From the IMG/VR virus record IMGVR_UViG_2850802633_000004: a DNA stretch of 41,734 nt. The stretch is one strand, 5' to 3'. The notes under the pieces were generated by a model. That model saw only the letters and a list, made by a program, of their open reading frames with translations, was not told the DNA's origin and did no database searches. Below, one piece after another: positions 18,322 to 19,330 of this stretch. The translations under genes were made by a program, and so were the position numbers. Within the stretch, counting starts at the first letter, position 1. The number at the start of each line of letters is the position of its first letter. The DNA comes from a virus. Lineage: Duplodnaviria; Heunggongvirae; Uroviricota; Caudoviricetes.

Positions 18322-18343
18322 GTTAATGATAATTATTTTCATT
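18322..18343 (+). promoter_or_regulatory. Candidate Fur box upstream of sitA
   Basis: GTTAATGATAATTATTTTCATT resembles the Fur consensus GATAATGATAATCATTATC; sit operons are known to be Fur-regulated. Confidence 0.45.
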
Positions 18344-18362
18344 TTGTATAGGTTATGCTATA

Positions 18363-18384
18363 AAACATAGCCGTTGCTATGTTT
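18363..18384 (+). promoter_or_regulatory. MntR box (perfect palindrome AAACATAGC-N4-GCTATGTTT)
   Basis: Perfect 9-bp inverted repeat matching the known MntR operator core, 33 bp upstream of sitA ATG. Confidence 0.75.
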
Positions 18385-18416
18385 GTTCTAATTTTGCTCA
18401 CTATAGGTACTAAATT

Positions 18417-19330
18417 ATGCACTCAATAAAAAAAGTAACCATGCTCTTGGGGTGCCTCGCCCTCACCTGCTCGATCGCATTTCAGGCAAGTGCAACTGAA
18501 AAATTCAAGGTCATTACAACATTTACCATCATCGCGGATATGGCCAAAAACGTGGCTGGAGATGCTGCAGAAGTCTCATCCATAACCAAGCCTGGTGCAG
18601 AAATTCATGAGTATCAGCCTACCCCTGGCGATATTAAACGTGCGCAGGGGGCACAACTGATTCTCGCCAATGGTATGAATCTGGAATTGTGGTTCCAACG
18701 CTTTTACCAGCATCTCAATGGGGTTCCAGAAGTAATTGTCTCTTCGGGTGTGACGCCAGTAGGGATCACCGAAGGACCCTATGAGGGCAAACCTAATCCC
18801 CATGCATGGATGTCGCCAGATAATGCTCTGATTTACGTCGATAATATTCGTGATGCGTTGATAAAATACGATCCGGCAAATGCACAAACCTACCAACGTA
18901 ATGCCGATACTTATAAAGCCAAGATTACCCAAACCCTTGCCCCCTGCGTAAGCAGATTACGGAACTCCCTGAGAATCAGCGATGGATGGTCACCAGTGAA
19001 GGGGCTTTTTCTTATCTCGCACGCGATTTGGGGCTAAAAGAGCTTTATCTGTGGCCGATTAATGCCGATCAACAAGGAACACCGCAGCAGGTACGTAAGG
19101 TTGTTGATATAGTTAAGAAAAATCATATCCCGGCAGTCTTTAGCGAGAGTACGATTTCCGATAAACCAGCGCGTCAGGTTGCGCGTGAAACCGGCGCACA
19201 CTACGGCGGTGTGCTCTATGTCGATTCCCTGAGCACAGAAAACGGCCCGGTACCTACGTATATCGACCTTCTTAAGGTTACTACCAGTACGCTGGTACAG
19301 GGAATTAAAGCCGGGAAAAGGGAGAAATAA
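18417..19330 (+). pseudogene. sitA: SitA periplasmic Mn/Fe-binding protein, frameshifted in a C5 tract near 18940..18944
   Basis: Two overlapping ORFs (18417..19037, 18986..19330) that together cover a SitA/MntA-like protein; frame switch at TQTLAP|LRKQ coincides with CCCCC run. Confidence 0.8.

Follow-up and report, generated by a model that had tools for sequence, protein, structure and literature searches.

The DNA stretch of IMG/VR virus record IMGVR_UViG_2850802633_000004 (Caudoviricetes; 41,734 nucleotides, referred to below as the window) carries the sitABCD operon, which by its sequence is the well-known Mn2+/Fe2+ ATP-binding cassette (ABC) importer located in a Shigella flexneri prophage remnant. 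The first gene of the operon, sitA, which encodes the periplasmic binding protein, is recorded in two reading frames that meet at a run of five C, and the present analysis concerns the nature of this lesion. Positions 17544-39148 match accession CP026768.1 with 0 mismatches and 0 gaps. CP026768.1 is the chromosome of S. flexneri 93-3063, a serotype Y strain from the USA (table in PMC9455713). The features of the locus, numbered along the window, are the following.

17302..17955, + strand: phage-integrase fragment (PF00589), marking the left border of the sit island, of S. flexneri type
18322..18340, + strand: Fur box GTTAATGATAATTATTTTC, with 16/19 matches to GATAATGATAATCATTATC
18363..18384, + strand: MntR operator-like palindrome AAACATAGC-CGTT-GCTATGTTT, arms complementary at 9/9 positions, 4-nt spacer
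18417..19330, + strand: sitA as recorded, 914 nt instead of the 915 nt of the full gene
18417..19037, + strand: 5' open reading frame (ORF) of sitA, 206 amino acids (aa), comprising the signal peptide and the SitA N-lobe (residues 1-176), 30 out-of-frame residues and a stop
18940..18944, + strand: C5 tract (C6 in relatives), a one-base loss at codons Ala175-Pro176-Leu177
18986..19330, + strand: 3' ORF of sitA, 114 aa, the SitA C-lobe, in frame -1 relative to the 5' ORF
19330..20157, + strand: sitB, ABC ATPase, 275 aa, intact (NF011630, 593.7 bits; cut-off 393)
20154..21011, + strand: sitC, ABC-3 permease, 285 aa, intact (ABC-3-type matches)
21008..21865, + strand: sitD, ABC-3 permease, 285 aa, intact (ABC-3-type matches)

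The two ORFs of sitA overlap by 52 nt. Their matches to Mn/Fe substrate-binding-protein profiles are complementary, the 5' ORF covering positions 5-177 and the 3' ORF positions 196-302 of 304. In the 206-aa ORF the profile match stops near residue 172, and the final ~30 residues are therefore considered out of frame. The 3' ORF is devoid of a signal peptide and of a clear Shine-Dalgarno sequence. An earlier note on this DNA, made from the letters alone, had described a frame switch at CCCCC (18940..18944) with both halves SitA-like, and the ORF coordinates and the complementary profile matches bear out this description. Insertion of one C yields a 915-nt ORF with 0 mismatches to the sitA of Escherichia coli FDAARGOS_944 (NZ_CP065613.1; WP_000555620.1), and the single lost C is therefore the only defect, with no secondary decay of the gene. 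The window as recorded (41.7 kb) contains 29 G/C runs of length five and none longer, so the restored C6 would be its sole run of six or more.

The restored SitA aligns without gaps to YfeA of Yersinia pestis (PDB 5uxs; residues 24-297, E = 3.7e-125), one of the cluster A-I metal-binding proteins (ZnuA/PsaA/MntC-type). SitA residues His64, His129, Glu195 and Asp270 align with YfeA residues 76, 141, 207 and 282, which we take to be the site-1 metal ligands. The His-His-Glu-Asp site is present in this alignment but divided, with His64 and His129 in the 5' ORF and Glu195 and Asp270 in the 3' ORF. Unlike in YfeA, the two His and the Glu/Asp pair thus fall on separate polypeptides, and the break lies in the region of the inter-lobe linker helix. 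A binding protein of the PF01297/ZnuA fold with a signal peptide on a single polypeptide is not encoded by the record as it stands and is encoded once one C is added; CP026768.1 therefore contains a sit operon in which sitA is disrupted.

The remainder of the operon and its control region are in good order. An ATPase gene and two ABC-3 permease genes stand beside sitA, and sitB, sitC and sitD are all full length, in agreement with the earlier reading of them as intact. The ATG of sitB overlaps the stop codon of sitA (TAATG). Compared with the E. coli reference, sitABCD shows 3 substitutions and no indel besides the tract. The perfect MntR palindrome and the Fur-like box that had been noticed ahead of sitA were also confirmed, each being unique in the window: the Fur box has no second match at ≤3 mismatches (chance expectation 0.02), and the MntR-type palindrome has a single match (0 expected). 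The form of the palindrome is presumably that of enterobacterial MntR operators. At the level of motifs, predicted Fur and MntR operators are thus present in the sit promoter. Repression of sitABCD by Fur and MntR, its induction in host cells and its part in intracellular growth and virulence have been reported (PMC3852070). The locus shares with the Sit systems of S. flexneri and pathogenic E. coli the gene order sitA-B-C-D, the prophage-remnant setting and the Fur/MntR operator-like sites, and its nucleotide identity to the sit loci of S. flexneri, enteroinvasive E. coli (EIEC) and E. coli is 99.7-100%. It differs from them in that, in CP026768.1 alone, the C6 tract is short of one C and sitA is split in two ORFs.

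The length of the tract was compared among close relatives. The nearest relative, CP026792.1 (S. flexneri 61-4982, of the same accession series), differs by 8 substitutions and 1 gap over 19,828 nt, and the gap is the C tract. C6 was read in each of the 15 other S. flexneri loci that were fetched irrespective of tract length: ten share the exact integrase fragment and five were retrieved through a neighbouring integrase. In the ten assemblies with the exact integrase fragment, sitA encodes 304 aa in nine and 296 aa, from an alternative start, in one. Overall, the tract was C6 in 29/29 fetched loci with an intact sitA. The earlier note had proposed that C6 in other genomes would mark an assembly error, and C6 is what the nearest relative and the 15 other S. 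flexneri loci have. An old pseudogene inherited within Shigella is ruled out because the change is private to CP026768.1, where sitA has 0 other differences from the intact gene. The recent pseudogenisation suggested earlier is kept as a rival, in the form of a very recent mutation at the tip of the tree.

The C5 allele is not confined to this strain. At least five distinct sit haplotypes carry it, in backgrounds including S. flexneri, other Shigella/EIEC and ColV-type plasmids, and three of these haplotypes have C6 twins, the window and CP026792.1 forming one of the pairs. In the pair CP026846 (C5) and CP119446 (C6), 5,708 nt aligned with 0 mismatches and 1 gap. A Logan contig of SRR11588744 (C5) likewise aligned with two C6 S. 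flexneri assemblies over ~4.6-4.7 kb with 0 mismatches and 1 gap. Such near-identical twins indicate that C5 is recurrent and, where a close C6 relative exists, arises at the tips. For two more groups of haplotypes, comprising three and four assemblies, C5 was read throughout and there was no C6 comparator. The uspF gene upstream of sitA shows a 14-nt deletion in both L010 and L021 among the fetched loci, and it is called as a truncated gene of 71 aa in L010 and L037; these uspF changes mark one Shigella/EIEC lineage that holds both C5 and C6 assemblies.

The frequency of the allele was estimated in several sequence sets. The exact 206-aa C5 product was present in 33 blocks of the collection searched and the exact SitB of the window in 9,469, and the exact intact SitA was present on at least 1,000 contigs. 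On contigs >1 Mb the C5 product occurred in 11 blocks, against 163 for the exact SitB, and on contigs <200 kb in 22 blocks, against ~9,270. The resulting enrichment of C5 in long assemblies is roughly 25-fold, with assemblies approximated by blocks and with lineage sampling that differs between the long and the short sets. Among RefSeq complete E. coli genomes, C5 was read in 3 of ~2,684 sitA copies (0.1%), and in all three records a second sit gene beside sitA is annotated 'frameshifted'. In PLSDB, 10 of 1,019 copies (about 1%) were C5; of four such records inspected, three were visibly noisy and one, pIncF-MU4, carried a lone C5. Other tract lengths were rarer still, and the bias is towards loss of a base. 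No E. coli record had C7, and the C7 product was found on 1 contig; the exact C4 product was absent from the collection, and C4 was read at the tract in one noisy long-read assembly. More than 99% of sitA copies are C6 and in frame. The exact 48-nt C5 pattern gave no match among GTDB species-representative genomes, a set that includes very few Shigella genomes and is uninformative on this point, and a literature search returned no report of a sitA frameshift or pseudogene in Shigella.

Records with a short tract also tend to carry other errors. Additional one-base indels in sitABCD were present in 19 of 26 distinct C5/C4 records and in 2 of 29 C6 records, with several of the C5 loci having been chosen as longest contigs. 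Nearly all the additional indels in C5/C4 records were homopolymer deletions, up to 14 per operon. The same accession series provides further cases: CP026872 has a private G5 to G4 change, CP026845 has two G5 to G4 changes and one more single-base deletion besides C5, and CP026810 has two private homopolymer deletions in 8.4 kb. Within the series, C5 is read in CP026823, CP026845, CP026846, CP026866 and CP026872. Most loci of this series were retrieved via the C5 product itself, so the C5 rate among them is that of a biased sample. The 114-aa C-terminal ORF of sitA was called as a gene of its own in 2,129 blocks, ~2,000 of them with short contigs, which is far above the count for the exact C5 product; the ten longest contigs with this call were all C5 or C4. 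In CP055132.1 (1-1143 and ~2087-3001), a partial second sitA with C5 and several one-base deletions lies beside a C6 copy, and this partial copy looks like an assembly artefact.

The missing C of sitA in CP026768.1 is best explained, with somewhat better than even confidence, as a homopolymer under-call in a long-read consensus. The change is a one-base homopolymer difference absent from the closest relatives, and C5 is enriched in long and noisy assemblies, where it stands alongside other homopolymer indels. Sequencing error, one of the three readings offered earlier, gains from this concentration of C5 in long-read assemblies with other homopolymer deletions. In both the present case and the known long-read errors, a single base is lost from the longest G/C homopolymer in a manner private to one record. 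Homopolymer errors that fragment genes in long-read bacterial assemblies are described in PMC12007338 and PMC9262707. By contrast with such error-prone records, CP026768.1 shows no second error of this kind in ~39 kb. CP026768.1 and its accession neighbours belong to the 'historical Shigella strains' set of the Centers for Disease Control and Prevention, which is presumably PacBio-only, and CP026768.1 itself is presumably a long-read-only assembly. We infer on these grounds that this particular C5 call is an error. If a C6 was under-called as C5, the organism would probably possess an intact sitA and a working transporter.

Several observations weigh against an under-call. There is no other private one-base indel in the ~39 kb that could be compared with other genomes, which argues that the assembly is locally clean. 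CP026792.1 and two National Collection of Type Cultures (NCTC) assemblies read the tract as C6, so any under-calling was not systematic. The C5 contig of SRR11588744 is short, bounded by insertion sequences and otherwise free of errors, and it ends at the same points as contigs of similar size in S. flexneri draft assemblies; it probably represents short-read data. The exact C5 product also occurs in another 21 short-contig blocks. Together with the SRR11588744 contig, these blocks suggest that real C5 mutants probably exist, at a frequency of probably ~0.2-0.3% of isolates. A frequency of this order would be expected at the longest G/C run of a gene if purifying selection on that gene is weak.

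The strongest rival is a genuine and very recent -1 slippage mutation, private to 93-3063 and possibly acquired during decades of storage or passage, which would have made sitA a null allele. We regard this as a real but clearly less probable explanation, to which about one chance in three may be assigned. The otherwise indel-free ~39 kb of the assembly speaks for it, as does a real-looking 4-nt repeat indel that CP026768.1 has in common with its nearest relative. The occurrence of C5 in a probable short-read assembly otherwise identical to C6 relatives, and of the exact C5 product in 22 short-contig blocks in all, is also in its favour. The longest G/C run is in addition the likeliest site of replication slippage, and pseudogene formation is common in Shigella. 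Against these points, the gene has no secondary decay, the change is not shared with any relative, and a lone C5 is absent among the ~2,684 sitA copies of RefSeq complete E. coli.

If the C5 were real, neither fragment would have a complete metal site. The N-lobe fragment would be exported and then degraded, and the C-lobe fragment would be without a signal peptide. The early stop would remove the TAATG coupling of sitA to sitB and might have a polar effect on sitBCD. In that case the strain would depend on MntH, Feo and aerobactin.

A second group of explanations gives the tract a function, either as a switch for reversible phase variation of Sit or as a selected hotspot of convergent adaptive sitA inactivation, and is very improbable. 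The independent origin of C5 on at least five haplotypes, including Shigella/EIEC and ColV-type plasmids, is the observation in its favour. As in the poly-G/C phase-variable genes of Neisseria, Haemophilus and Campylobacter, a change in the length of a coding poly-C tract switches the frame. Known contingency tracts are usually 7-8 bases or longer, whereas the sitA tract has 6 bases; its OFF allele is rare (0.1% in RefSeq E. coli, ~1% in PLSDB and ~0.25% of short-contig blocks) and almost always -1, with no +1 in E. coli genomes and +1 variants almost absent elsewhere. Most C5 alleles stand beside other assembly errors, and C5 was not fixed in any fetched lineage for which a C6 comparator exists. 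Phase variation is rejected on these grounds, the OFF lengths, both +1 and -1, being rare. The slippage-prone homopolymer of the earlier note therefore survives only in the trivial sense that the tract is the longest G/C run of the region, and no phase-variable behaviour was found. A genuine recurrent hotspot for the loss, and perhaps the recovery, of Sit in independent Shigella/EIEC lineages and on ColV-type plasmids is also quite improbable, though marginally less so than a functional switch. The same slight credence applies to the companion view that the lone-C5 records (93-3063, CP026823/66, CP026846, SRR11588744 and pIncF-MU4) are selected convergent events. Hotspot and switch together add up to only a small share of the probability. 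The weakest explanation is that SitA is restored from C5 at the C run, either by a programmed -1 frameshift of the ribosome or by slippage during transcription. It deserves almost no credence and is effectively refuted by the absent conservation of the split arrangement, in-frame copies making up nearly all of sitA. In addition, no X XXY YYZ heptamer occurs, the downstream RNA has no structure beyond that of shuffles (minimum free energy z-score +1.0), and five C are too few for transcriptional slippage to be efficient. The one favourable feature is that a P-site tRNA-Pro could move back by one base on C-CCC with perfect re-pairing, giving the wild-type sequence, and this would allow trace read-through at most.

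An under-call thus remains the preferred explanation. Either it or a private null mutation carries little biological weight, as sitABCD is already established together with its Fur/MntR control and its function in Shigella, and the private change would be an artefact or else a null allele of a routine kind. The wider point concerns public long-read records, in which the C6 tract of sitA is repeatedly mis-called or occasionally mutated. An annotated 'sitA pseudogene' in such records, including those of serotype reference strains, should therefore not be equated with loss of Sit without confirmation at the level of reads.

Other variable sites were noted in the window. An 11-nt unit (TTTTTGCCCCT-like) at 18157-18207, which lies ~150 bp upstream of the Fur box, differs in copy number among S. 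flexneri genomes, with variants of +11, -11 and a ~30-nt loss in several assemblies, and the distance from the integrase fragment to sitA consequently differs between strains. At 22994-23004 a 4-nt CAGT unit is missing relative to most relatives, and a tail-fibre gene is thereby divided as follows.

22640..22993, - strand: first split tail-fibre ORF, 117 aa, from the CAGT unit loss
22990..23343, - strand: second split tail-fibre ORF, 117 aa, from the same loss

The loss is common to CP026792.1 and therefore looks like real microsatellite slippage and not an error. A look-up of the 117-aa tail-fibre ORF for short-read assemblies of the same sublineage spanning sitA returned only unrelated prophage copies. 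An A8 tract at 22561-22568, within a DUF4376 tail-fibre-associated gene (22066..22689, - strand), varies from -2 to +1 bases among near-identical genomes. Short tandem repeats with units of 9 nt (TGTGGTTGT), 10 nt and 11 nt form a cluster at 26637-26950, and S. flexneri genomes differ in their copy number. The prophage remnant also includes an intact IpaH-type gene of 571 aa (2942-4657) with LRR_TTSS and NEL E3-ligase domains (Pfam), and just downstream of it a divergent patch at 4980-5011 differs from seven relatives.
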